From: Candidatus Bipolaricaulota bacterium
GTDB lineage: Bacteria; Bipolaricaulota; Bipolaricaulia; RBG-16-55-9; DRXL01
NCBI GenBank assembly: GCA_030550495.1
Contig: JAUQPG010000004.1
Coordinates: 2,476 to 66,475, forward strand
Direction: 5' to 3'
DNA: 64,000 nucleotides
Within the stretch, counting starts at the first letter, position 1. Each line of letters opens with the position of its first letter. The notes under the pieces are model-generated. The model was not told the origin of the DNA and made no database searches. It saw only the letters and a list, made by a program, of their open reading frames with translations. Positions 1,324 to 37,980 of the stretch are shown piece by piece. A program made the translations under genes and the position numbers.

Positions 1324-4185
<2,862 letters not shown>

Positions 4186-7556: not shown

Positions 7557-10130
<2,574 letters not shown>

Positions 10131-25276: not shown

Positions 25277-26584
25277 ATGTACAGCATACGATTACGAGGC
25301 ATCTACGCGACGGCGTTGGCGGCAGTAGCGCTCGAGCACGGCTGGCGCGTGGCGCAGCCCCCTGAAGAGCTTCAGTCTCGTGTGAACCCAGAAGATCGCT
25401 TTGCCCCATTTGATCTTGAGGTCCGGGATCGTGATGACCGCCAAGGCGTGCTAGTCCTCGGGGATACGAATGCTGTCGGTGCTTTCAAAAGACTGCTCTT
25501 GGCTGAGCTCCCCGATGTCATCTGTGTGCCAGCCTTGACAGAGTTAGGTGCAATTTATCTGGGGATCGTGCACAAGCGCCGTGCCCTAGGCTATGAGATA
25601 GACCTAGGTAATTTCATGGGGTTTCTGCCCAAGACGGAGCTCACACACCCACTCAAGAAGGGCGAGGCTATTCGCGTGCAAATCAGAGAGATCGTTCATG
25701 TTCAGCCGATCGTGACGACCCAGCTCAGCCTCGCTGGACGATTCGTGGTGCTCTGCCAAAAGCAAGGTGTGGGCATCAGCAAAGAGATCATCGACCCTGA
25801 TGAGCGCAAGCGGCTCTTGAGTCTTGGAAGAAGATATTGCGCCAACGGCTGGGGGGTGATCTGGCGCACTAGTGCGTATCGAAAGGATCTTCGCGATCTC
25901 AAAAGTGAGATCGAGATCTTACAGCGCGACTTGCCCACGCTCGAGGGACACCCTGACGAAGGCATCCCTGGGAAGTTGCGCTCGGGCCAAATGACCTTGA
26001 TCTGTGAGTTTCCCGGAGGGAGCAAGCAAGTGCTCGATCAATGGCGTGCGCGTCTCATCCCAACAGAGCCAGGATATCATCAGAGTCAAGTGGGAGATCG
26101 AGCCTGGCCGCGCGTAGGCCAATCGATCTTCATCGAGCACGTCAAGGTGCCTAGCGAGCTGAGCGTGCTGATGCGCGCTCGCGTGATCGCCGTAAGTCCT
26201 AGTAGTATTACTGTGCGTCGCGAGATCAAGGGCACGGGAGTCTACGATGGGCTCAATATCCCCAAAGAATCGGGTGACTATGCCGTAACGGAATTTCTTC
26301 AAGGCGCTTGGCACTATGAGACGCGCTACTACTCGCGGAACGGCTTGCTCAAGGGCATCTATGTGAATATTAACACGCCCATAGAGATTTACGCAGATCG
26401 CGTGCGCTATGTCGACTTGGAGATCGATGTTGTGCAGAGACCCACTGAACCAGCGCAGGTCATTGATGAGCCGAAGCTTGAGTCCATGGCTCAGTATGTG
26501 AGCTCCGGCCTCGTGCAACGAGCGCGCACCGTCGCTGCGGAGTGCGTGCAGATGCTCAATCACTGCGCTCATGGCGCAGAGTGA
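25277..26584 (+). CDS. FAU-1-like protein: RNase E/G-like N-terminal region fused to a C-terminal DUF402 domain
   Basis: S1-like region, GRFVVLCQKQGVGISKEIIDPDERKRL and GVIWRTSA (the RNase E/G 5'-sensor/catalytic-half pattern). The C-terminal ...GIYVNINTPIEIYADRVRYVDLEIDVV is DUF402-like. Confidence 0.65.
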   Translation: MYSIRLRGIYATALAAVALEHGWRVAQPPEELQSRVNPEDRFAPFDLEVRDRDDRQGVLVLGDTNAVGAFKRLLLAELPDVICVPALTELGAIYLGIVHKRRALGYEIDLGNFMGFLPKTELTHPLKKGEAIRVQIREIVHVQPIVTTQLSLAGRFVVLCQKQGVGISKEIIDPDERKRLLSLGRRYCANGWGVIWRTSAYRKDLRDLKSEIEILQRDLPTLEGHPDEGIPGKLRSGQMTLICEFPGGSKQVLDQWRARLIPTEPGYHQSQVGDRAWPRVGQSIFIEHVKVPSELSVLMRARVIAVSPSSITVRREIKGTGVYDGLNIPKESGDYAVTEFLQGAWHYETRYYSRNGLLKGIYVNINTPIEIYADRVRYVDLEIDVVQRPTEPAQVIDEPKLESMAQYVSSGLVQRARTVAAECVQMLNHCAHGAE

Positions 26585-26632
26585 TCACGCCCTCTATAAT
26601 CTAGAGAACCAAGACTACAGGAGGAGATACGT

Positions 26633-27334
26633 GTGAGTGCCAAGCGCCAACAGAACCCGACAAAACTCGAGAAGAAGACTTCATCGAAATTGCCGTGGTA
26701 TCGCCAGCCGATGGTGTTGGGAATCGCCATCGGCGGGGTAGTCGTTGTGGGTTTAGTCGTGTTCATAGCGATCTTTTCGCGTCCTGGGGAGAGCTTCCAG
26801 GTCACGCGCCCCATCGGACAAGACTTTTTGCCAGAGATGGGCGATCCCAATGCCCCTGTAACTGTCTATGAATACGCGGACTATCAATGCCCAGCGTGTG
26901 CCTACTTCGCTAAGCAATATAAGCCAAAGATCGAAGACGACTATATTAAGACGGGTAGAGTGCGCTTGGTCTTTAAGAACTTTGCGTTTCTGGGACAGGA
27001 GTCGGTGTGGGCGGCTGAAGCCGCCTATTGTGCGGCCGAGCAAGGGGGCTTCTGGGCCTATCACGATAAGTTATTTGCCAACCAGCGTGGGGAAAATCGT
27101 GGGGCGTTCAGCAAGCCCAACTTGGTGCGTTTTGCTCGCGAGCTTGGCCTGAAAGCAGAAGACTTCCAGAGCTGCCTTGACTCTGGAAGATATAGACAGA
27201 AGATCCAAGACGAGCTGCGTGAGGGCAAAGCCCAAGGCGTCAACTCTACGCCTAGCTTTATCGTCAACGGTCAGCTCGTGCGTGGCGCAGACTATCTGCG
27301 CCTGCGCGAATTGATCGAGAGCTATCTTCCCTAA
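26633..27334 (+). CDS. Membrane-anchored DsbA-family thiol:disulfide oxidoreductase
   Basis: N-terminal TM helix, CPAC active site and a thioredoxin fold. GTG start with GGAGG RBS, and TATAAT at 26595-26600. Confidence 0.85.
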   Translation: MSAKRQQNPTKLEKKTSSKLPWYRQPMVLGIAIGGVVVVGLVVFIAIFSRPGESFQVTRPIGQDFLPEMGDPNAPVTVYEYADYQCPACAYFAKQYKPKIEDDYIKTGRVRLVFKNFAFLGQESVWAAEAAYCAAEQGGFWAYHDKLFANQRGENRGAFSKPNLVRFARELGLKAEDFQSCLDSGRYRQKIQDELREGKAQGVNSTPSFIVNGQLVRGADYLRLRELIESYLP

Positions 27335-27392
27335 CGTGAGCCCTTGACAAAGCCCGCGCCGGTCCGTACTCTCTTAACGAAGAGGAGGGCTC

Positions 27393-29087
27393 ATGTGGCG
27401 TGGGTGTGTCTGTGGGCTTCTCGCGGCGGCCTTGGCGGGCGCTTCCGGGCTCGCCCAGCTCAAGATTGAGAATATCGAGCTGGGGTTCAATGGGCGCTTC
27501 TTCCCAGGCACATTTACCCCTATTGCTGTTACACTTAGCTCTGCCGCGACGGCTCAGAACTTCACTCTGGAAGTCTCCCAGGAGATCCGGGAGTTCACGG
27601 AGCGCCGCGCCGTAGAACGATTACGAGTGCCGGTCAGCCTTGCTGCGGGGGCGCGTAAAGTCATCTCGTTCGATTTCCCCATCTATAGTGTGAGCACGCC
27701 GCTCCAGCTTAGGCTCATGAACGGCCCTCAGGAGCTTGCTCGCTCTACGATAGAGGTGCGCGAGCTGTGGAGCGAGACCCCGTTGGTCTTGGGGGTCGCA
27801 GTCGCTCCGAGGCCCTCTCTAGGACTGATAGACGTAGAGAAGCTTCCCAAGCGCTGGTCGAGCTACGATGGCGTAAGACGCATCTTGTGGGGGCGAGCCG
27901 ATCCCGCGCGTCTCAGTACAGAGCAGCGCCGAGCGTTGCAAGGCTGGCTGGTGCGCGGAGGCGAGCTCGTCATTCTCTCTGGGGCTAATTGGTACGAGCA
28001 ATTCTCTCCCCAAGCGTGGTGGGCCCAGCTCTTGCCCATCACGGGCGGGCGCGTCGTGCGCTCTGAGTTCAACGGTCAGGAAGTCCTGTGGCTTGAAGGC
28101 GATCTGCGTGCAGGAGCGCGGGTGACGCTCACCTATCAGGGACGCCCCCTTGCGTGGGAGCGCCCTATAGGGAACGGTACGGTTGTGCTTGTCGCTATAG
28201 CGACTTTACCGGAAGATCTAGAACTTTCTGAGCTATCTAGCCGTCAGACCGTAGAAGACGATCTCGTGATCGTCAGGGCACTTGGAGCGCTGCCAGTGCC
28301 TTTCCCCTCACGGGAGCTCATTGGGGTGCTCTTGATACTCTTTGTGCTTGGGGTAGGGCTCAGCGGGATGTTCGTAGAGCGGTGGAAGAAGCTGCCCCTT
28401 GGAGTTGGCTTGCTCGCTCTTATCTTATCGGGCGTGCTTTTCAGTTACCAGCGCAGCCCGGAGTTCTCGAGTGAGAAATACTCGCTTGATATTGGAGTCA
28501 TACAGAGCTGGTCTGGTGGGGCAGTAGCGTGGGAACGCAGCTGGTATGGGGTCTTCTTCCGTCGCTCTCGTGAGGAACAGCTTCTAGGGTCTGCCGAGAT
28601 GGTGAGCACGCTGAAGCCATCGCGTCAAGCTCTGCGCTCTGAAGGAGAGACTGTGAGGGAGCTTGCCCTGAGTGGGGACTGGCAGCTCCGTTTTTATGGC
28701 GAGCGCGACTCCGTCAGCTTTTTCAAAACAGAGCGTCTCATGGAGCCCTTTGTCCACTTCTCGCTCAATGATTCTAGACTTTGGGTGTCTAACCGAGCCT
28801 CTGTGGCATTGCAGGACGTGATCGCGTATAGTGGGGATGCGCTCTATCAGCTAGGGACGATCCCAGCTCAGACGGAGCTCGTGCGCCCGCTAACGGAGCG
28901 CGTCAGCAAGACTGAATGGGTAAATACTCTCACATCGGAGCGTCGGAGGATATGGCAACAATGGGGGAATATATCGAGCCGGACGGGACTCATCGGGTGG
29001 ATAGAAGACATAAATATTTCGTCTCTTCGTCTCGCTCTTGGTGAGAGTAGGACGGTCTTACGGCTCGTGCTTGTTGAGGGAGATTGA
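27393..29087 (+). CDS. Hypothetical exported/membrane protein (signal peptide plus internal TM helices)
   Basis: 564 aa beginning MWRGCVCGLLAAALAGASGLAQ, with hydrophobic segments near residues 305-350. No recognisable domain. Translationally coupled to the next gene (ATGA). Confidence 0.65.
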   Translation: MWRGCVCGLLAAALAGASGLAQLKIENIELGFNGRFFPGTFTPIAVTLSSAATAQNFTLEVSQEIREFTERRAVERLRVPVSLAAGARKVISFDFPIYSVSTPLQLRLMNGPQELARSTIEVRELWSETPLVLGVAVAPRPSLGLIDVEKLPKRWSSYDGVRRILWGRADPARLSTEQRRALQGWLVRGGELVILSGANWYEQFSPQAWWAQLLPITGGRVVRSEFNGQEVLWLEGDLRAGARVTLTYQGRPLAWERPIGNGTVVLVAIATLPEDLELSELSSRQTVEDDLVIVRALGALPVPFPSRELIGVLLILFVLGVGLSGMFVERWKKLPLGVGLLALILSGVLFSYQRSPEFSSEKYSLDIGVIQSWSGGAVAWERSWYGVFFRRSREEQLLGSAEMVSTLKPSRQALRSEGETVRELALSGDWQLRFYGERDSVSFFKTERLMEPFVHFSLNDSRLWVSNRASVALQDVIAYSGDALYQLGTIPAQTELVRPLTERVSKTEWVNTLTSERRRIWQQWGNISSRTGLIGWIEDINISSLRLALGESRTVLRLVLVEGD

Positions 29088-29746
29088 GTATGCGCGCTGT
29101 GCTGAGTTTAAACAGATCATGGTCAACGTATGTGAGCTATCTAATCTTGACTGGGATTCCATTGTTGCTGGTGTTGCCGTCGCCGGCTCGAGTCGATGCG
29201 CTTATCGAGCCTCGCTTGAATCTAGCTACTGGCTTTATGATCATCGCTACGGCGCTCTTTGCCGTGTACTCATTCAACTTTGGGCTAGCCCACGCACGGC
29301 TCGATCTTCCCCCCACAGAGATCCGTATCAATCTGTTCGCTCATGTTCTCTTTTTGGTGGTGCTGAGTCTGCCCTATTGGACGGTCTTTGCTGGTATCAC
29401 TGGGCACGGACTAGGCCGTCTCTGTGGGGCTTTGGGATATTTAGGGCTCTATGGGGCATGTTGGGCCGTGCTGGGCGTGCCCATTGGGCGGCGCTGGCCC
29501 ACAGAGATCGCCCAGTTTCATATGAAATACGCGTTGCTCATTGTGGGCATGGGTGTGACGTTCTTCGTGCTCAGGCCTCTGAACCCGTTCTTGATGCTCT
29601 CGCTGTGGTTTGGCGAGGGCGCGCTGCGCGAGCAAGTGGGATTCTTGATCATGGGCTACTTATCGCTAATAGCAGCGTTAGGTGCCCTCTCCTGGTGGGG
29701 AATTCAAGGAGGAAAGAATGCACTCGTTCGAGACGATACGCGTTAG
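29084..29746 (+). CDS. Hypothetical polytopic membrane protein
   Basis: 220 aa with 5-6 predicted TM helices. Its start overlaps the stop of the upstream gene. Confidence 0.6.
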   Translation: MSMRAVLSLNRSWSTYVSYLILTGIPLLLVLPSPARVDALIEPRLNLATGFMIIATALFAVYSFNFGLAHARLDLPPTEIRINLFAHVLFLVVLSLPYWTVFAGITGHGLGRLCGALGYLGLYGACWAVLGVPIGRRWPTEIAQFHMKYALLIVGMGVTFFVLRPLNPFLMLSLWFGEGALREQVGFLIMGYLSLIAALGALSWWGIQGGKNALVRDDTR

Positions 29747-31295
29747 CTTAGAGCGTCGCAAGCGCTTGGTACAAGGGAGCGCGCTGGCGAGCTGGGCTCT
29801 GCTGGGCAGCTTCGGAATAACTGCGCTTATGCTGCTAGGGAGTACCCTTGGGATTTGGGGTGCTCTCCCGTTATCTGCTTGGGTGATCGGGAATCTCTTA
29901 GTTGGCGCGCTCGCGTTTATGGTGGGATGGCTGCGACCGATTAATACTATAGAATTGCTCTTTCGTGCGGATCGCCAGTGGCGCACGAACGAGAGACTCG
30001 TAACGCTCTATGAGCTCAGTCTGGGCTATGGCCCTCAAGAGTTTCTCCCGTTGCTGGAGCGCCAGCTCAATCGGCTCTCTGTGAACGCAGCTCAAGCTCT
30101 GCCTTGCACATCACGGGACAAGTGGCGCTGGGTGGTCGTCGTGATTTTAGCGCTCGTCTGCGTGAGCCTGACAAGCTTCGTTCAGTTAGGGGCGCTCTTT
30201 GTGCGCACCGAGCCAGATCGCTCAGGGGCGACTGCTCAAGCAAGCCGAGAGTCTCAGCGGGCATCGCAGCTGCTAGAATGGTTGCAGACGCCCTCCGCAG
30301 AGCTTGCTCAAAAGCTTTTGTCAGTGCGAGAGCGCCTTGAGCAAGCCCGTGCTGCACTCGCGCTCAATCCTAATGATCCGCGCGCTCGCGCGGCGCTCCA
30401 GCAGCTTCACGCTGAGCTCATCCAAGAACAGCAGCGCCTTGCGCCTCCACTGCCTTCGGCTGAAGAAGAGCAACCGAAGAGATCACGCCCTGAGTCCTCT
30501 CTTGTCGAAGGCTCTCCGGGCGAGCCGCGTCCTCCTCAGCGAGGCACCTCTGAGGCGCTAGCGCTCAATCAGCTCTTGCAGAGCTTGCGCAGCGTCTCTG
30601 AGCAAGCGCAGAGTCTCTCCCCAGAAGAGCTACAAAAGCTCTTGGAGCAGCTCCGCGAAACGAATCCCGATGCTGCGGCCCTCGCCGAGCACCTCTTACA
30701 GATGACGCAAACCCCTGAAGAGTTTCGCGAGCGCCTCGAAGAGATCTTGCGCAAGCTTGAAGCGCGCCAAGCTCTTCGAGAACAATTAGAGAATCTGCAG
30801 CGTGAGCTTGAGTCAGCTCTCATGCCATCTGAGCCGCAAGTCGAGCGCGAAGAATCTCCCACGGGCTTCCCTAGCGCGATGACCCCACGTGAAGAAAGCT
30901 CTCCCCAAGCCCAGCAAGAGGGCCAGCAGGGCTTAGCTTCCGAAGCTCACGGGATTCAGTCACAAGAACGACAAGAAGAGGGGCAGACGTCAGCCGGAGC
31001 AGGGCGCGGTACAGCCCCGCTCGACCCGGAAGCTGCTCAAGATCTGCCTGATCTCTCCCAGTTGCGTGAACGCTCGCGCGAGCTCTCCGTTCCAGGCTCC
31101 CAACAAGACGATCTCGAAATTCTCTTTGAGATCGTCACTATGGAGCTGCCTCAAGGGAGTGAGACCCCTTGGAGTACTACTCCTGTGCAGATCGACTACG
31201 GCAAAGTCGAAGCCCTGCTCGATATGCTCGAAATCCCTGAAGAACTCCGCGACGCAGTGCGCCAGTATTTTCTGAGTCTCAGCCGTCAACGCTAA
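29718..31295 (+). CDS. Hypothetical membrane-anchored protein with a long Q/E/L/A-rich coiled-coil region
   Basis: AAGGAGG RBS 7 nt before ATG 29718. Two N-terminal TM helices, then low-complexity and coiled-coil sequence. Confidence 0.6.
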   Translation: MHSFETIRVSLERRKRLVQGSALASWALLGSFGITALMLLGSTLGIWGALPLSAWVIGNLLVGALAFMVGWLRPINTIELLFRADRQWRTNERLVTLYELSLGYGPQEFLPLLERQLNRLSVNAAQALPCTSRDKWRWVVVVILALVCVSLTSFVQLGALFVRTEPDRSGATAQASRESQRASQLLEWLQTPSAELAQKLLSVRERLEQARAALALNPNDPRARAALQQLHAELIQEQQRLAPPLPSAEEEQPKRSRPESSLVEGSPGEPRPPQRGTSEALALNQLLQSLRSVSEQAQSLSPEELQKLLEQLRETNPDAAALAEHLLQMTQTPEEFRERLEEILRKLEARQALREQLENLQRELESALMPSEPQVEREESPTGFPSAMTPREESSPQAQQEGQQGLASEAHGIQSQERQEEGQTSAGAGRGTAPLDPEAAQDLPDLSQLRERSRELSVPGSQQDDLEILFEIVTMELPQGSETPWSTTPVQIDYGKVEALLDMLEIPEELRDAVRQYFLSLSRQR

Positions 31296-31304
31296 AGGAG
31301 AGTT

Positions 31305-32291
31305 ATGATCACTGAGAAGAGAATTCGCGAGCTGCAAGAGAAGTTCCATGAACTCATAGCAGAGATTCGTTCTGTCATCATTGGTCACGAAGAAGTTATC
31401 AAGCACGTGCTGATTGGATTGCTCTGTGGGCAGCACTTGTTGTTGGAGGGTGTACCGGGGCTGGGCAAGACGCTGTTGGTGCGCACCCTAGGAAGAGCTT
31501 TGGGTTTAAAATTTGCGCGCATTCAGTTTACCCCAGACTTGATGCCCGCGGACATCATCGGCACGCGCATTCTCGTCGAGGACGAGTCAGGCCGACGCCA
31601 TTTTGAGTTTGCTCGCGGCCCGGTCTTCGCGCATCTGGTCCTGGCTGACGAGATCAACCGTGCGACCCCTAAGACGCAGTCAGCGCTCTTGGAAGCTATG
31701 CAGGAACGTAGCATCACTGTGAGCGGGGAGACGTACAAGCTCGAAGAGCCGTTCATGGTCTTAGCGACGCAAAACCCCATTGAGATGGAAGGGACCTACC
31801 CATTGCCGGAGGCCCAGATCGATAGATTCTTTTTTAAGATTCTCTTGCGCTATCCGTCGCTGGGCGAACTCGAAGAGATTCTCCGGCGTCACGGGGGCGG
31901 CCAAGAATCTCAGGCTGTGAGACAAGTCTTGACACGTGAAGAGCTCTTAGAAGTGCAGCAGCTTGTGGCACAATGGCCTACGGCATCGCCACTGCGACGC
32001 TACGCGGCGCGGCTTGTCTACGCGACGCAGCCGTCTTCCCCAGACGCACCAGAGCTCGTCAAAAAGTACGTGGAATACGGGGCGAGTCCGCGTGCGGCGC
32101 TTGCGCTCATCTGGGGCGCTAAAGCTCATGCATTTCTCTCGGGAGAGCTCAACACGCGCATTGCCGACATCCAAGCCGTCTTCTATCCTAGTTTGATTCA
32201 TCGGATCATTCGGAATTTCCGCGGGGAAGCCGAGGGCATCCCCGTCGAGCAGATTCTGCAGCAGGTCTATGAGCAGATCCAGCCTACGTAA
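31305..32291 (+). CDS. MoxR-family AAA+ ATPase
   Basis: Walker A GVPGLGKT, Walker B LADEINRA and ...VLATQNP. Confidence 0.93.
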   Translation: MITEKRIRELQEKFHELIAEIRSVIIGHEEVIKHVLIGLLCGQHLLLEGVPGLGKTLLVRTLGRALGLKFARIQFTPDLMPADIIGTRILVEDESGRRHFEFARGPVFAHLVLADEINRATPKTQSALLEAMQERSITVSGETYKLEEPFMVLATQNPIEMEGTYPLPEAQIDRFFFKILLRYPSLGELEEILRRHGGGQESQAVRQVLTREELLEVQQLVAQWPTASPLRRYAARLVYATQPSSPDAPELVKKYVEYGASPRAALALIWGAKAHAFLSGELNTRIADIQAVFYPSLIHRIIRNFRGEAEGIPVEQILQQVYEQIQPT

Positions 32292-33141
32292 GCGCGACGA
32301 ATCTTTCTGGAAGCGACTCTCCGCGCTGCAGCTTCTGGTGCGCCACCGGGCGGAGGGCCAAGCCGGCCCGTGGACGACCCGCCGCGTCGGCATGAGCTTG
32401 GAGTTTGCGGAGTATCGCGAGTATTACCCCGGGGACGACTTTCGCTACGTCGATTGGAATCTCTATGGTCGGCTCGATCGGCTCTTTGTGAAAGTCTTCC
32501 ATCGGGAAGAGAACATCCCTGTTTATGTGCTCATCGATACGAGCCAGTCGATGTCCGTAGGGGAGAAGCTCTCCTACGCTGGGGAGCTCGCCGGAGCTCT
32601 CTCGTATATCGGGCTCAAAGATATGAACCGTGTAGGTGTCTTTGCGTTTGCGCGTGCTCTCGTCCAAGGGGTGCCAGCCCGCAGCGGCTTATCTCACCTC
32701 CAGAAGATCTTGAGCTTTCTCGAAGGACTCCAGCCGAACGATCGGACGTCCTTGAGCACAGCCCTAGAAGAGTTCAGCAAGCTTCCGGTGCGTCGGGGTT
32801 TAGTGGTTGTGTTGAGCGATATGCTCGATCCTGCAGGATACGAGCAAGGGCTCTTCCATCTGCTTATCAAGCGCCATGAGATAGCGTTGGTCCAAATCCT
32901 TGCCCCAGAAGATCTCGAGCCGCCAATACATGAGGCAGCACGACTCGTCGATAGCGAAGGGCTTGGGGAGTTCTCAGTATCGGCTGGGGCAGTAGCACGC
33001 TATCGCCAGAGATTGCTTCAGTATGAGCACGGCTTAGAGACGTTCTGCCGCACGCATCAGATTCGGCATAAGGTGCTTTCAGCGGCGCGGCCGCTGGAGC
33101 GCGCCCTTTTTGAAGACTTGCGCGGGGTGCTCTTCGTATGA
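32269..33141 (+). CDS. DUF58-domain protein (MoxR-associated VWA-like)
   Basis: ...RRVGMSLEFAEYREYYPGDDFRYVDW...VLIDTSQSM... Overlaps the MoxR stop by 23 nt. An alternative start is ATG 32392. Confidence 0.85.
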   Translation: MSRSSLRKRDESFWKRLSALQLLVRHRAEGQAGPWTTRRVGMSLEFAEYREYYPGDDFRYVDWNLYGRLDRLFVKVFHREENIPVYVLIDTSQSMSVGEKLSYAGELAGALSYIGLKDMNRVGVFAFARALVQGVPARSGLSHLQKILSFLEGLQPNDRTSLSTALEEFSKLPVRRGLVVVLSDMLDPAGYEQGLFHLLIKRHEIALVQILAPEDLEPPIHEAARLVDSEGLGEFSVSAGAVARYRQRLLQYEHGLETFCRTHQIRHKVLSAARPLERALFEDLRGVLFV

Positions 33142-34808
33142 TCTTTCTCAGTGCGTGGGCGTTTGGACTCTTGGGGGTAGCAAGCGTGATCGCTCTCTTA
33201 TACTTCCTGCGACGACGTGAGGAACGCCTGGTCGTCTCGGCCATCTGGCTCTGGGAAGAAGAGCACGAACGCCCGCGCAGCGCCTTGACGCTCTTATGGA
33301 CGAAGATCTGGTTATTGCTCGTGCAATTAGCAGCTCTCGCGGCGCTCGTCTTCAGCCTCGCGGAACCGACTCTGACTCGAGAATTTATCGGAGGCGGCAC
33401 GCTCGCGCTCATCATTGACGGCAGTGCGAGTATGCAAACAGCTGAGCAGGGAAAGACACGCTATGAGCTTGCGATCGCGCGCGCTGCGGAGCTGATCGAG
33501 CAACGACGTCCCAATCGATTGACAATCATCCAAGCGCAGCAGAGCCCGAAGCTCCTTGTGCCCCTGACTGAAGACCGACCGCGTGCTCTCTTCACTTTGA
33601 AAGCTTCTCAACCGACACTCCAGGGCGACGCAAAGCCCTCTGATATTCTTGAGCTCGTGCGCAGCCAAGGCGGGCTTGAAAACTTTCACGAAGTGATCTA
33701 TATAAGCGATCACGCGCCGGCGCTGCCCATACCGTGGGTCTCCGTAGGCGAGCCTAGGAAGAATCTCGCGATCACGGGTTTTGCTGCTCGCCCGGTGCCT
33801 GATGGGACGTCTCAAGCTATAGTGTGGGCTCGCGTCCAGAATTTTTCATCAGAGGCGCTCGAAGGGACTCTAAAGCTCTTTGCTGAAGAGACTGAGATCC
33901 ACCAAGAGCGCATATCTCTTGGCCCTGGAGAGCAGCGCTCGGTCGAAGCGCTTGCGCCTTTATATACACGCTTCCGTGCTGTACTGGACGTCATCGACGA
34001 CTTCGCCTTCGATAACATTCGGTACTCGGTCATTCCGAGGCGTCCGCAGTTAAAGATTCTCTGGCTTGGGGAGCGCAATTTCTTTCTGATGCGCGCGCTC
34101 AGCACATTCGCTGAAGTGTCTATACAAACAGACGAGACAGCAAGCTATGATCTCGTTATTGCTCATAACACAGCGATACGCCCTGTCGGTGCGGTGTTAT
34201 TGATTAACAGCGTTGCGGAGCCTTGGGTGGTGCGCGCGGGGAGCATCAGCGAGCCTGGCTCACTTCAAGTATTGGTTCCCGGCCACCCACTCGTGCAGCA
34301 TGTGCGCGGGGAGCACCTACGCCCAACAACGCTCTCCGGTGCTCAGCTTGCTCCAGGTGTACAGACACTTATTGCGTCAGGGGATCAGCCCATCTTAGCA
34401 GCGTACAGATCGCAGGGCTTACGTTTCGTCTATCTAGGTGTTGACTTAAAAAGCTCTCCCTTGGTGCTTACTCCAAGCTTTCCCATTCTCATACGCAATA
34501 GTATTTATTGGCTTATTCCTGAGCTAGGGTTGCCATCGGAGCGGTTCGTATCAGACGAGTTTGCTACGCTGGGTTTTGCTGATCAGACGGCAATCAATCT
34601 AGACCCAACCGAGTCTGAGATCAATCGTCTTGGCTCTCCGAGTTTCGTCCCACAAGAAAGCCCAACAAGAGAGACAAAAAGCCAAATTTATACACCCATC
34701 TGGTATCTTGGGGCATGGGCAGCGTTCGTGGCGCTTGCTGGGGAATTGCTCTGGTACTATTGGGGTGTGTTCCGTCGCCGGAGGTGGAGCTATGAGCGTG
34801 CTCCTTGA
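33138..34808 (+). CDS. BatA-like protein: N-terminal double-TM anchor, a VWA domain (DGSASM MIDAS motif), a large middle region and a C-terminal TM helix
   Basis: MIFLSAWAFGLLGVASVIALLYFLRRRE... then LALIIDGSASMQ, with a C-terminal hydrophobic helix. Confidence 0.8.
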   Translation: MIFLSAWAFGLLGVASVIALLYFLRRREERLVVSAIWLWEEEHERPRSALTLLWTKIWLLLVQLAALAALVFSLAEPTLTREFIGGGTLALIIDGSASMQTAEQGKTRYELAIARAAELIEQRRPNRLTIIQAQQSPKLLVPLTEDRPRALFTLKASQPTLQGDAKPSDILELVRSQGGLENFHEVIYISDHAPALPIPWVSVGEPRKNLAITGFAARPVPDGTSQAIVWARVQNFSSEALEGTLKLFAEETEIHQERISLGPGEQRSVEALAPLYTRFRAVLDVIDDFAFDNIRYSVIPRRPQLKILWLGERNFFLMRALSTFAEVSIQTDETASYDLVIAHNTAIRPVGAVLLINSVAEPWVVRAGSISEPGSLQVLVPGHPLVQHVRGEHLRPTTLSGAQLAPGVQTLIASGDQPILAAYRSQGLRFVYLGVDLKSSPLVLTPSFPILIRNSIYWLIPELGLPSERFVSDEFATLGFADQTAINLDPTESEINRLGSPSFVPQESPTRETKSQIYTPIWYLGAWAAFVALAGELLWYYWGVFRRRRWSYERAP

Positions 34809-37332
34809 CGCGCCTTGGGCTCTGCTAGGGATCGTCGTGATCGTTCTTGGAGTCTGGGCGACGCGGAAGCGCTGGCGCAATCTCCCAAGAGGAGATCAGG
34901 TAGCTCTGCTTGCACGCGCCGGGGCGCTCGCCTTGCTCTGTCTTGCTCTCGCTGGCCCACGCTTCGCTTCTGGCGCTTCCGAACGATTTATCTATTTCGT
35001 GGTCGACCGCTCGGCCAGCGTGGGCGCAGAGCCTTCGGAGCTCTTACAAATCGTACAGGCGCTGGCTCAGCCTGCTGAGGGAGTCTCCTACGGGCTTATC
35101 AGCTTTGGTGCGGAGCCGTTAATCGAGACGAGCTTTGCCCCAACGCTCTCTCTGACCGAATTCCAAACGGAGCCTAACGCAACCGCGACGGACATCGCCA
35201 GCGCGATACGCTTAGCTTTAGAGACCTTGCCGCGCACCGGTCGCCGGGAGATCGTTCTGTTTACAGACGGGCAGATGACTTCTGGGGAGATCTATTCTGT
35301 CTTGGCGCGCGCGCGTCGTGAGGGCGTCCCCATTCACGTCTGGCCCCTCGGAGGAGATTTCTTAGAAGTCTGGCTCTATGATCTGCAGGTGCCCGCGGAA
35401 GTCCCTGTAGGAGTGCCCTTCTCCTTGCGTGTGGAAGTCGGCGCGACCACGCGCGGGACCGGCACAATACTTCTGTACCGAAACGGCGAGCTTATCCACA
35501 CGGTCTCTATCGAATATGCTCCTGGCATCCAAGAAGTGCGCTTGACAGATCAGCTTGAGACGCCAGGCGCTTTTGCGTACAGAGTGTATCTGAAAGCTGA
35601 TAGTGATCGGCTTAGGGAAAACAACGAGCTCTATGGGGTGACGATAGTCCCTGGCGGGCCGCAGGTGCTCATCGTAGAGCGCTCTGGGGGCGAGAGCACG
35701 GTAGCTCGCCTAGTCCGCAGCAGCGGGCTCTCTTTCGAGCAACGTGAGCTCTCTGAACTGACAGCGCTCCCGCTGGCAGAGTATAAAGTTATTATTCTCA
35801 ACAATATCCCGATGGGGCAGCTCACGAAGGAGCAGCGTCGGGCTCTGAAGAATTTCGTCGCTGATCTTGGGGGAGGGCTGTGGGTTATTCAAGGGCGTGA
35901 GGCCGTCGCGGGCTTAGAAGAGCAGACCGGCCCAGAGCTCGCTGACTTAGAAGAGCTCTTGCCCGTTTCGTATTTGGCCCCTGAGCCCTATCAGATTCCG
36001 GGGTTGGCTCTGGTCTTCGTGATGGACCGCTCAGGGAGCATGGGCGATCCCGCTGGCGGCGTCCCCAAGATAGAGATTCTCAAGCGCGCGGCTCTCCGGA
36101 GCTTGGACGTCCTTGATCCCGAAGACTGGGTTGGGCTCATCGCGTTTGATACTGACTTTGACTGGATCGTCCCGCTCAAGCCTCTTGGGGACCGGCGCGA
36201 TTTCCAAAGCAGCATCCAACGGCTGAACGCCAACGGCGGCACCGATCTCTATTTCGCCCTGAGATCGGCGTTTGAGACTTTAGAGAAGACGCCGGCGCGC
36301 GTCAAGCATATTTTAGTTTTCACCGACGGGCATAATAATACCAGACGCGAGCGCGAGTATCGCGAGCTCTATGAGCGTTTCCAAAAGAGCACCGTGCGTG
36401 TCTCCGCGCTGGGGATTGACCGGGCGCCTAACGAAGAGTTTCTCATGGAGCTGGCGACTGCCGGGCGCGGACGGTATCAACGCGTGCGCGAGTTTTCAGA
36501 TCTGCCCGTCTTTTCGCTGCGCGAGGTACGGCGCATCGCGCGGCTGCGCTGGATCGAAGGGCAGAGCCTTGTGCGCGCCCTCGCCCCTATGAAGGCAGAG
36601 GACTTCCCTCCCGTGCGCGGGTACGTGCTCACACATGAGCGCCCAGGGGCGCAAACAGTGCTTGTCGCTCTTCCCGACGAGAACCCGCTCTTGGCTTTTA
36701 AACGTTACGGCCTAGGACACGTTGCCGTGCTCAATACAGATCTTGAAGGTGATGGGGCGCCCGAATGGCTACGCTGGTCAGGGCTGAGTCAGCTCTTTGC
36801 AGAGAGTCTCGGGCAGCTCTATCGCCCCATCCCGCGTCAAGGAGAGCTCACAGTACAAACTGTCTTAGGCGATGAAAGCTTAGAGATCATTGCTGATATA
36901 CGCGAGCAAGATCGCTGGATCTCGGACGCAGAGCTATATGCCCAGCTGATCGGCCCAAGTCAAAGAGATATAGTGCTTTTGCCTGTAGCTCCAGGGCGCT
37001 ATCGCGCCCAACTTTTGCGCATTCCTCAAGGGCAGTATACTCTTCGTATAGAGGCTAAGCGCGCGGGCCAACTGCTCAGTGAAGTGATCAAACCCGTTGC
37101 TACTCCGTATGCCAAGGAGTATCGTCAGATTGGGCTCAACAGTGATCTCGTGAGCGAGATCACGCGTATCACGGGCGGGGAGGTCTTAGAACGGGCGGTT
37201 CTGCCGCCGCCGTCAGGCAAAGTGGCTCAAGAGACATATCGAGCACTGTGGCCCTGGCTGCTTCTGAGTGCATTAGGGCTCTTTCTCGTTGACTTAGCGC
37301 TGCGCAAGCTGTGGTGGCTCCTGGAGCGCTAA
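34792..37332 (+). CDS. BatB-like protein with two VWA domains, an N-terminal TM helix and a C-terminal TM helix
   Basis: VWA-1 has FIYFVVDRSASVG and VWA-2 has LVFVMDRSGSMGD...NGGTDLYFAL. GGAGGTGGAG RBS precedes ATG 34792. The ORF-track start at 34630 is an upstream extension. Confidence 0.8.
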   Translation: MSVLLDAPWALLGIVVIVLGVWATRKRWRNLPRGDQVALLARAGALALLCLALAGPRFASGASERFIYFVVDRSASVGAEPSELLQIVQALAQPAEGVSYGLISFGAEPLIETSFAPTLSLTEFQTEPNATATDIASAIRLALETLPRTGRREIVLFTDGQMTSGEIYSVLARARREGVPIHVWPLGGDFLEVWLYDLQVPAEVPVGVPFSLRVEVGATTRGTGTILLYRNGELIHTVSIEYAPGIQEVRLTDQLETPGAFAYRVYLKADSDRLRENNELYGVTIVPGGPQVLIVERSGGESTVARLVRSSGLSFEQRELSELTALPLAEYKVIILNNIPMGQLTKEQRRALKNFVADLGGGLWVIQGREAVAGLEEQTGPELADLEELLPVSYLAPEPYQIPGLALVFVMDRSGSMGDPAGGVPKIEILKRAALRSLDVLDPEDWVGLIAFDTDFDWIVPLKPLGDRRDFQSSIQRLNANGGTDLYFALRSAFETLEKTPARVKHILVFTDGHNNTRREREYRELYERFQKSTVRVSALGIDRAPNEEFLMELATAGRGRYQRVREFSDLPVFSLREVRRIARLRWIEGQSLVRALAPMKAEDFPPVRGYVLTHERPGAQTVLVALPDENPLLAFKRYGLGHVAVLNTDLEGDGAPEWLRWSGLSQLFAESLGQLYRPIPRQGELTVQTVLGDESLEIIADIREQDRWISDAELYAQLIGPSQRDIVLLPVAPGRYRAQLLRIPQGQYTLRIEAKRAGQLLSEVIKPVATPYAKEYRQIGLNSDLVSEITRITGGEVLERAVLPPPSGKVAQETYRALWPWLLLSALGLFLVDLALRKLWWLLER

Positions 37333-37392
37333 GATTTGTGTCGTTCTGCAAGTTCTGCTATGATATTACCCACTCTGCGTGGAGGTGGTCTG

Positions 37393-37818
37393 ATGTTCGA
37401 GCGCATCTTTGGCGGGTTCAGTCACTGGGCGACGATCCCATTGCGGGTAGCTATTGGGATTATCTTTGCCGCCCACGGTTGGCAGAAGTTTGCCAACGGG
37501 CTTGACGGTGTGGCCCAATTCTTCGGAAGTGTGGGGATTCCCTTGCCGCAGGTTTCGGCGTTCGTCGTTGCTTTCGTAGAGCTGGTGGGGGGGATCGGCC
37601 TGATCTTAGGGTTTTTTACGCGCTATTGGGCGCTTCTGCTCTCTATAGTGATGATCGTAGCGATCTTCACAGTGAAGCTCCAAGGGGGGTTGCTTGGAGC
37701 GGGAGGGCGCCCCGGGTATGAGCTCGACCTAGCTCTTCTAGCTGGCTGCCTTGCACTTTTGCTCACTGGCCCAGGACCGATCTCGCTGGAGCGGGTGATC
37801 TTCAGCCGCGAGTTGTAG
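37393..37818 (+). CDS. DoxX-family membrane protein
   Basis: 141 aa with 4 TM helices (RVAIGIIFAAHGWQKF...). GGAGGTGG RBS. Confidence 0.85.
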   Translation: MFERIFGGFSHWATIPLRVAIGIIFAAHGWQKFANGLDGVAQFFGSVGIPLPQVSAFVVAFVELVGGIGLILGFFTRYWALLLSIVMIVAIFTVKLQGGLLGAGGRPGYELDLALLAGCLALLLTGPGPISLERVIFSREL

Positions 37819-37946: not shown

Positions 37947-37980
37947 CCGAGCCCTGAAGCCCAGGGCTCGGATTATTCTT
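37947..37980 (+). terminator. Rho-independent terminator after doxX
   Basis: CCGAGCCCTG-aagc-CAGGGCTCGG followed by ATTATTCTT. Confidence 0.5.

Follow-up and report, generated by a model that had tools for sequence, protein, structure and literature searches.

What does a bacterial gene cluster build when three genes for unnamed proteins stand directly ahead of a gene for a MoxR-type ATPase? This question is raised by a 64,000-nucleotide stretch of DNA from Candidatus Bipolaricaulota/Acetothermia (about 57% GC; called the window in the following), in which nine packed genes on the plus strand span positions 26633-37818. We name them G1 to G9 in order (Table 1). Genes for a MoxR ATPase (G5), a DUF58 protein (G6) and two membrane proteins with VWA domains (G7 and G8) are preceded here by the unnamed trio G2, G3 and G4. 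DUF58 is the usual companion of MoxR, and of the bacterial gene clusters whose mechanism is not known, MoxR-DUF58-VWA operons are, to our knowledge, among the most widespread. We hold it to be probable, though well short of certain, that positions 27393-37332 are a seven-gene membrane cassette of the order G2-G3-G4-MoxR-DUF58-G7-G8, a unit conserved beyond this organism which would build a MoxR-served scaffold on the outside of the cytoplasmic membrane. What is new is the G2-G3-G4 extension of the well-known MoxR-DUF58-VWA core; no description of this extension was found in the literature searched.

The evidence that carries this proposal comes from distant relatives. A HMMER search of 1.84 billion representatives with the G4 profile gave 175 clusters at E <= 1e-3, mostly 430-650 residues long, with matches to G4 in its conserved N-terminal part and its C-terminal motif. 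Eight genomic contexts of this family (L017 and L019-L025, E-values 1e-42 to 1e-5; L019 is from Candidatus Bipolaricaulia) made up our distant sample. The G4 homologue lies directly upstream of MoxR in all eight, the G2-G3-G4 trio stands ahead of MoxR in seven, and the order G2-G3-G4-MoxR-DUF58 is found in six (L019, L020, L021, L023, L024, L025), of which every contig that is long enough continues with genes for a BatA-type VWA protein and a double-VWA protein. In L019, L023, L024 and L025 the G2-like (561-631 residues), G3-like (227-262 residues) and G4-like proteins are followed by MoxR, DUF58, a BatA_N/VWA protein of 595-647 residues and a double-VWA protein of 842-918 residues. L021 keeps the same order until its contig ends inside the double-VWA gene; its VWA protein of 612 residues matches only VWA_2 in Pfam, yet aligns to G7 from residue 1. 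The L020 contig has the same order and ends inside DUF58. Profile searches of the neighbouring genes found the G2-like proteins at E 5e-91 to 7e-19 and the G3-like proteins at E 7e-41 to 3e-7; the 262-residue protein of L023 was not detected by the G3 profile.

The flanking genes differ in every one of these distant contexts and GC contents range from 49 to 68%. The identity to the window is 52-71% for MoxR and 22-36% for G2, G3 and G4. Neither DsbA nor VKOR nor DoxX genes adjoin the distant cassettes. This recurrence with differing flanks is the strongest evidence that G2 to G8 probably form one functional unit, and among the partners of MoxR, G4 is the most constant. An earlier sequence-only reading of this DNA had cast the three leading proteins as partners of a MoxR system, which is borne out by G4 before MoxR in every distant context, the trio in seven and the unrelated flanks. 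It had also called them possibly lineage-specific; this we can drop, given a G4 family of 175 representative clusters and a cassette carried on contigs of such different GC content.

Table 1. Coordinates of genes G1 to G9 and of the hairpin downstream of them.
Feature	Description	Position	Strand	Matches (E-value) and remarks
G1	membrane-anchored DsbA-like thiol:disulfide oxidoreductase	26633-27334	+	Pfam Thioredoxin_4 1e-38, DSBA 2e-15; transmembrane segment at residues 29-47
G2	exported, membrane-anchored, 564 residues	27393-29087	+	below all Pfam/NCBIfam cut-offs
G3	six-helix integral membrane protein, 218 residues	29090-29746	+	alternative TTG start at 29084
G4	membrane anchor, 525 residues	29718-31295	+	below all Pfam/NCBIfam cut-offs
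G5	MoxR-family AAA+ ATPase, cytoplasmic	31305-32291	+	AAA_3 1.4e-63, AAA_lid_2 6e-14
G6	DUF58, cytoplasmic VWA-like, MIDAS motif	32269-33141	+	DUF58 9e-39, VWA_2 3.5e-8
G7	BatA_N + VWA protein, 556 residues	33138-34808	+	BatA 4e-11, VWA_2 1.5e-10
G8	double-VWA protein, 846 residues	34792-37332	+	VWA_2 2.4e-30 (two stretches), VWA 2.6e-25
G9	DoxX-family membrane protein	37336-37818	+	DoxX 1e-25
Hairpin	terminator-like, 10-base-pair stem, 8 G-C pairs, weak T tail	37947-37971	+	best in region

All open reading frames (ORFs) that the sequence-only reading had named were recovered at their positions on the plus strand, and Pfam backs the MoxR, DUF58 and VWA identities. From G2 through G8 every junction is either an overlap (G3/G4 29, MoxR/DUF58 23, DUF58/G7 4 and G7/G8 17 base pairs) or a gap of at most 9 base pairs (G2/G3 2, counted from ATG 29090, and G4/MoxR 9). 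At the outer ends, G1 and G2 are separated by 58 base pairs and G8 and DoxX by 3. Shine-Dalgarno sequences precede G1, G2, G3, G4, G5 and G8. The homologues of G3 are 218 residues long with an N-terminus MR(Y/A), and therefore ATG 29090 rather than position 29084 is probably the start codon. Of the stop/start overlaps reported earlier, the one at 29084-29087 thus probably falls away, while the four from G3/G4 to G7/G8 stand. Similarly, G4 had been given 537 residues (from GTG 29682); because its homologues begin with M(H/N)SFE, we replace this by 525 residues from ATG 29718. The eight-gene block described before is real as a same-strand run, while a ninth gene, DoxX, adjoins G8 and the DsbA gene lies outside the cassette. 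DoxX may be co-transcribed with G8, and the hairpin downstream of it may mark the end of the transcription unit; the total of terminator-like sites was not above the shuffled expectation, so this hairpin is weak evidence, and the promoter scan likewise did not exceed that expectation and tells little about transcription. ORFs in alternative frames overlap G3 and other genes (a 237-residue ORF at 29038-29751 on the plus strand and several minus-strand ORFs within 26569-34880); most likely these are non-coding shadow ORFs.

Within Bipolaricaulota, the block was found in 12 species-representative genomes and nine metagenome contigs, and all named homologues of G2, G3 and G4 stem from Candidatus Bipolaricaulota/Acetothermia metagenome-assembled genomes. 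With the G3 alignment, a scan of metagenomes returned only close Bipolaricaulota relatives with the same synteny. The order in the phylum is RNase E/G-DUF402, DsbA, (VKOR), G2, G3, G4, MoxR, DUF58, G7, G8, DoxX, (DinB), acetyl-CoA synthetase, and MoxR is 80-97% identical. Conservation in related genomes, proposed earlier as a check, is thereby confirmed: at the loci with enough sequence the block is intact in all except one deep branch. Because this synteny extends into housekeeping genes, it says little about function. The deepest Acetothermia branch (L001-L003, L015), whose G2 is 38% identical, has RNase E/G followed by DsbA-VKOR-G2-G3-G4 and then a dihydroorotase gene. A VKOR gene lies between DsbA and G2 in most relatives (L004 at 9474-9938; L010-L016, L027-L033). 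In the clade of the window (L005-L009, L026) it is missing, with the 58-base-pair gap remaining (27334-27393 in the window), and the rest of the window yielded nothing VKOR-like at E < 1e-5; the VKOR gene was lost in this clade.

The DsbA-like gene had been counted as the lead gene of the cluster. We rejected it in this role, since it occurs upstream of G2 only within Bipolaricaulota, is absent from the cassettes of L019-L025 and from all other distant copies, and not a single cysteine occurs in the exported portions of G2, G4, G7 and G8. DsbA is thus probably a syntenic neighbour and not a functional member of the cassette. DoxX likewise follows G8 only in Bipolaricaulota loci and is absent after the cassette in L017, L019, L023 and L025; the top NCBIfam match of G9, an HvfX-family maturation protein, reaches 64.8 bits where the cut-off is 80. 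Directly upstream of DsbA throughout the phylum lies a gene that encodes in the window (25277-26584) a 435-residue protein, made up of an RNase E/G-family segment and a C-terminal DUF402 domain; its counterpart in the deep branch is shorter (272 residues). Four records that carry the same syntenic block (L006, L008, L011, L014) are titled "uncultured Thermotogae bacterium" or "Candidatus Fraserbacteria bacterium". Their G2 proteins are 72-77% and 51-53% identical and their MoxR proteins 84-96%, and the labels are probably wrong.

For the second half of the cassette, Pfam matches and predicted transmembrane segments (TMs) agree with the earlier assignment to a MoxR/DUF58/VWA membrane system. 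MoxR has the Walker A motif GVPGLGKT and scores 213 bits with AAA_3; DUF58 carries a metal-ion-dependent adhesion site (MIDAS) motif DTSQS at residue 90. Neither protein has a signal peptide or a TM. G7 matches BatA (PF07584) with 43.6 bits against a cut-off of 25.9, has TMs at 2-20 and 57-75, a VWA domain with the MIDAS motif DGSAS, a further C-terminal domain with a faint DUF7408 match and a C-terminal TM followed by RRRR, and contains no cysteine. G8 has TMs at 3-21, 37-55 and 819-837. Between the two N-terminal TMs and the last one lie VWA1 (DRSAS, residue 72), a ThuA/GATase1-like module, VWA2 (DRSGS, residue 412) and a GATase1_like/DUF7408 module; the scores of these extra modules are 27.0 bits for GATase1_like (at the cut-off) and 25.4 bits for DUF7408, with ThuA weak. 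Despite its two N-terminal TMs, G8 gave no match to BatA_N. The DxSxS MIDAS motif is intact in DUF58, in G7 and in both VWA domains of G8, so that G7 and G8 together bear three MIDAS-type VWA domains. The two proteins share the two N-terminal TMs and a C-terminal TM with basic residues behind it. Because of these TMs at both ends, their middle parts are predicted to lie outside the cytoplasmic membrane. For BB0173, a BatA-like protein of Borrelia, a periplasmic VWA domain was found by experiment (PMC5700661). The earlier labels BatA-like and BatB-like fall short here: G7 and G8, doubly anchored proteins of 556 and 846 residues with extra GATase1-like modules, differ from ordinary BatA and BatB.

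The three leading proteins had been described as having no recognisable domains. This holds insofar as none of them has a Pfam or NCBIfam match above cut-off; at the level of folds, G2 and G3 are recognisable. The AlphaFold model of G2 (predicted local distance difference test 83, predicted template modelling score 0.80) contains, in its N-terminal half, a signal peptide, an immunoglobulin (Ig)-like β-sandwich (~23-120) and a GATase1-like/DUF4350-type α/β domain (~131-267). A TM hairpin (307-354) and a second β-sandwich domain (362-563) make up the C-terminal half. The mature protein is free of cysteine, and for this reason the α/β domain cannot be an amidotransferase; according to the model it is a non-catalytic GATase1-like domain of the DUF4350/GldG/ThuA type. 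DUF4350 is matched weakly by 21 of 37 G2 relatives (best E 1.8e-5), and the G2 homologues of L022 and L023 reach 18.8-19.2 bits. In its other features G2 agrees with DUF4350/arCOG01314-type proteins, being exported and membrane-anchored, with a GldG-like flavodoxin/GATase1-type fold and a gene close to MoxR and vWA genes. The GldG models (TIGR03521 and ABC_transp_aux) were matched neither by G2 nor by its relatives. With hhalign, the G2 profile found no match in G7 and only a weak one in G8, in the GATase1-like motif. The GATase1-like fold is common to G2 and G8, and possibly present in G7.

G3 is predicted to have the six-helix transmembrane-domain fold of ABC-2 proteins, the type V ATP-binding cassette (ABC) exporters, and NosY and other type V permeases are among its top structural matches. 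On the sequence level, no Pfam or NCBIfam match to the ABC2_membrane families was obtained for G3 or 34 relatives, except that one distant G3 homologue matches ABC2_membrane_5 at E 0.027. The GldF model was not matched by G3 and its relatives, and a PDB sequence search with the G3 profile gave nothing. At residues ~70-80, where the ABC-2 coupling helix is expected, the family alignment shows a short, variable loop with gaps. No gene for an ABC ATPase was found in the 64-kb window or adjoining the cassette in L017-L025; it may be encoded elsewhere in the genome. The sole ABC signature of the LSGG type in the window belongs to a UvrA-like ORF (1324-4185), which codes for 953 residues, among them an LSGGE signature and a Walker A motif in two copies.

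G4 starts with a basic N-terminus and a TM hairpin (22-70), followed by a conserved basic loop of 68 residues (71-138) and a third TM (139-157). The loop consensus is FRADR..E.LVTLYEL, and L[FY]..DR...GE.L.T..EL in the family alignment. Behind the third TM follow about 370 helical, low-complexity residues of variable length, rich in E, L, Q and A, up to the conserved C-terminal motif ..LP..IDY.KVE.LL..IP.ELR..VR.YF.SL. In the wide family this motif reads ..LP....Y..VE.LL....P.ELR..VR.YF..L, with P478, Y517 and F518 invariant. According to the positive-inside rule, the loop is predicted to be cytoplasmic and the long Q/E-rich region to lie outside. The topology predictions suggested earlier as a check give G2 as exported, G3 as built of six helices and G4 as carrying three TMs. 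We found no consistent relative of G4 in Pfam, NCBIfam, PADLOC or the PDB, where the profile search returned coiled-coil noise only. The architecture presumably resembles that of DUF4175/TIGR02302 proteins, with two to three N-terminal TMs and a long Gln-rich low-complexity ectodomain, yet family-model scans gave no DUF4175/TIGR02302 match for G4, 38 relatives and five distant homologues.

Which known system comes closest? In archaea, Makarova, Galperin & Koonin (2015, PMC5898192) predicted a complex for secretion or membrane remodelling from a neighbourhood of arCOG01314 (DUF4350, GldG-like), MoxR (COG0714) and vWA genes that also encodes membrane proteins of 2-3 and ~5 TMs. Both systems have an exported, anchored protein of the GldG-like flavodoxin/GATase1 type beside MoxR and vWA, along with Ig-like domains and small proteins that span the membrane 2-3 or ~5 times, and nearly all components are membrane-bound or extracellular. 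This likeness is one of gene content, in which the small membrane proteins are compared with G3 and G4 by TM counts. The differences are that one TM at the C-terminus anchors arCOG01314 while in G2 a TM hairpin lies inside the chain, followed by a second β-domain, that the archaeal vWA proteins are described as likely secreted whereas G7 and G8 are doubly anchored giants of the BatA_N type, and that S-layer-type Ig proteins (arCOG02884) were not seen in the cassette.

A second relative is the RL3499-RL3502 system of Rhizobium leguminosarum. It comprises MoxR, DUF58 and then large membrane proteins with an N-terminal double-TM BatA domain, an arrangement that the cassette resembles, and is not known to have G2, G3 or G4 genes ahead of moxR. 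When compared with this type, G7 scores 18.9 bits on TIGR02226, under the cut-off of 23.05, though its Pfam BatA match passes, and G8 is the protein without BatA_N. An envelope-integrity and cell-morphology phenotype, which would fit a scaffold on the membrane face, is ascribed to RL3499-RL3502, as far as a later paper relates it (Vanderlinde et al. 2011, via PMC5700661 ref. 24). The pairing of G2 with G3 has a counterpart in GldG/GldF (with GldA) and NosD/NosY (with NosF), where an exported partner also stands beside a six-helix membrane protein of the ABC-2 fold. These systems possess their own ABC ATPase. In contrast, the cassette and the window hold none, the neighbouring ATPase is the AAA+ protein MoxR, and G2 and G3 lack the sequence-level matches to the GldG, ABC_transp_aux, GldF and ABC2_membrane models. 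Our verdict is that the cassette is a variant of the Bat/RL3499-type MoxR-VWA envelope systems, for which the archaeal DUF4350-MoxR-vWA prediction is the closest description.

How could such a cassette work? TMs and charge distribution place most of the mass of G2, G4, G7 and G8 on one side of the membrane. Because of the positive-inside rule, the signal peptide of G2 and the analogy with BB0173, this bulk would be situated outside the cytoplasmic membrane. There, at the outer face, the VWA, GATase1-like and Ig-like domains of G2, G7 and G8 could join into a hetero-oligomeric scaffold that depends on metal, with the GATase1-like modules of G2 and G8 (faint in G7) as oligomerisation units. G2 and G3 might act as a "permease plus exported partner" sub-complex in the manner of GldG/GldF or NosD/NosY, and this pair as well as the helical arm of G4 would be associated with the scaffold. 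From the cytoplasm, a MoxR hexamer with DUF58 as adaptor may assemble or remodel the complex, making contact through conserved cytoplasmic features, namely the G4 loop and the hairpin loops of BatA_N. The role would be to build or maintain an envelope or surface structure, either for integrity or for the export and anchoring of surface material; we propose an envelope role because it matches both the RL3499-RL3502 phenotype and the archaeal proposal. DsbA upstream and DoxX downstream would be phylum-specific neighbours outside the machine. A bolder version, to which we give little credence, is that G3 is a permease whose ABC ATPase was permanently lost and which, together with G2 and G4, is driven or gated by MoxR through DUF58. 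If true, this would be a hybrid machine: an AAA+ motor would stand in for the nucleotide-binding domains of an ABC exporter, and the machine would move or assemble surface material held by the VWA/GATase1-like scaffold.

Several points weigh against the seven-gene scaffold. In the deep Acetothermia branch the trio is present, yet no MoxR block adjoins it (L001 10001-15134; L015 9776-13589). In L022 the trio and MoxR are followed directly by rpsU, without adjacent DUF58 or VWA genes. L017 possesses a G4-like gene with MoxR-DUF58-BatA-VWA2 and has neither G2 nor G3. Because these loci keep only subsets, the parts of the cassette are separable. In addition, the DUF4350 (PF14258) score of G2 is sub-threshold (15.9 bits against a cut-off of 30.4), the putative coiled-coil character of G4 is judged from composition and alignment, and operon status and every mechanistic step are what we infer from the gene arrangement and the predictions. 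We also know of no route by which a cytoplasmic AAA+ ATPase reaches exported VWA domains in any Bat-type system. At L017 (7973-17989), a 555-residue FG-GAP/UnbV_ASPIC protein is encoded in their place, 360 base pairs upstream; it may be an alternative exported partner.

These separable loci lead to the explanation that two independent modules simply lie side by side: G2 and G3, with or without G4, would be an accessory set for an ABC-2 transporter of the GldG/GldF type with a distal ABC ATPase, and MoxR-DUF58-G7-G8 a self-sufficient Bat-like group. The trio of the deep branch, the MoxR block of L017 and the arrangement in L022 all suit this idea, as does the transporter fold of G3 together with the kinship of G2 to the GldG/IFT52/DUF4350 ABC-auxiliary domains (PMC5898192). 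Nevertheless, we consider it unlikely, since in six or seven unrelated contexts trio and MoxR block are contiguous, lie on the same strand and often overlap, and G4 always lies directly ahead of MoxR, even where G2 and G3 are missing. Moreover, an ABC ATPase gene was found neither in the window nor adjoining any cassette, and the coupling-helix loop of G3 has the short, variable and gapped form described above.

Could the locus be a classical Bat aerotolerance operon, in which G2-G4 take the place of BatC, BatD and BatE while DsbA and DoxX supply redox chemistry? The Bat operons of Bacteroides, Leptospira and Borrelia (MoxR-DUF58-BatA-BatB-BatC-BatD(-BatE)) indeed share with the cassette an adjacent MoxR-DUF58 pair followed by a double-TM BatA_N protein with a VWA domain (here G7) and another membrane protein with VWA (here G8), in that order, and the DsbA and DoxX flanks, with VKOR in relatives, supply thiol-redox genes within Bipolaricaulota. 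Yet the TPR protein BatC, BatD and the SH3 protein BatE of these operons have no counterpart here. No match to TPR, BatD or SH3 was obtained in the window proteins or in 37+39+35 family members (E <= 0.1-1), G8 being followed by DoxX, and a run of the Pfam and NCBIfam models for BatC/BatD/BatE, TPR and DUF4381 on the three leading proteins, which had been proposed as a check, came back empty; DUF4381 also found nothing among the family members. Three other genes stand before MoxR instead, and the earlier remark that the layout differs from the Bacteroides/Leptospira bat order is correct. G7 and G8 have two to three times the length of their Bat counterparts and carry GATase1-like modules and a C-terminal anchor, and G7 reaches only 11.9 bits on the NCBIfam model VWA_BatA_Lepto, whose cut-off is 380. 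The redox genes are missing from the distant cassettes, the exported regions offer no cysteines, and the oxidative-stress role proposed for Bacteroides and Leptospira is, according to PMC5700661, unproven there. An aerotolerance operon is therefore improbable in our judgement. An anti-phage or conflict system akin to the MoxR-vWA-β-propeller ternary systems is very improbable indeed: the ATPase passes the bpMoxR cut-off (45.2 bits) yet scores far higher with AAA_3, β-propeller or effector partners as in those systems were not found in the cassette, PADLOC gave no meaningful match for any of the seven proteins, five of the seven are membrane-embedded and of structural type, and the neighbourhood is a conserved housekeeping one throughout the phylum, in the manner of a core-genome location.

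In summary, on the favoured reading of the locus as a seven-gene scaffold cassette, the MoxR-DUF58-VWA core of several uncultured lineages gains three conserved, unnamed families: a GldG-like ectodomain protein, an ATPase-less membrane protein of the ABC-2 fold, and a three-TM anchor that always stands right before moxR. An ATPase-less ABC-2-fold protein beside an AAA+ motor is an unusual feature of this cassette, and the cassette is known from uncultured organisms only. All members of the G2-G4 families are now annotated as "hypothetical protein", and naming the families would improve annotation; in culturable carriers, the cassette proteins would be concrete targets for co-purification and cryo-EM. 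The three families connect the bacterial Bat-type systems to the archaeal DUF4350-MoxR-vWA prediction, and G2, G3 and G4 could plausibly link the cytoplasmic ATPase across the membrane to a scaffold outside.

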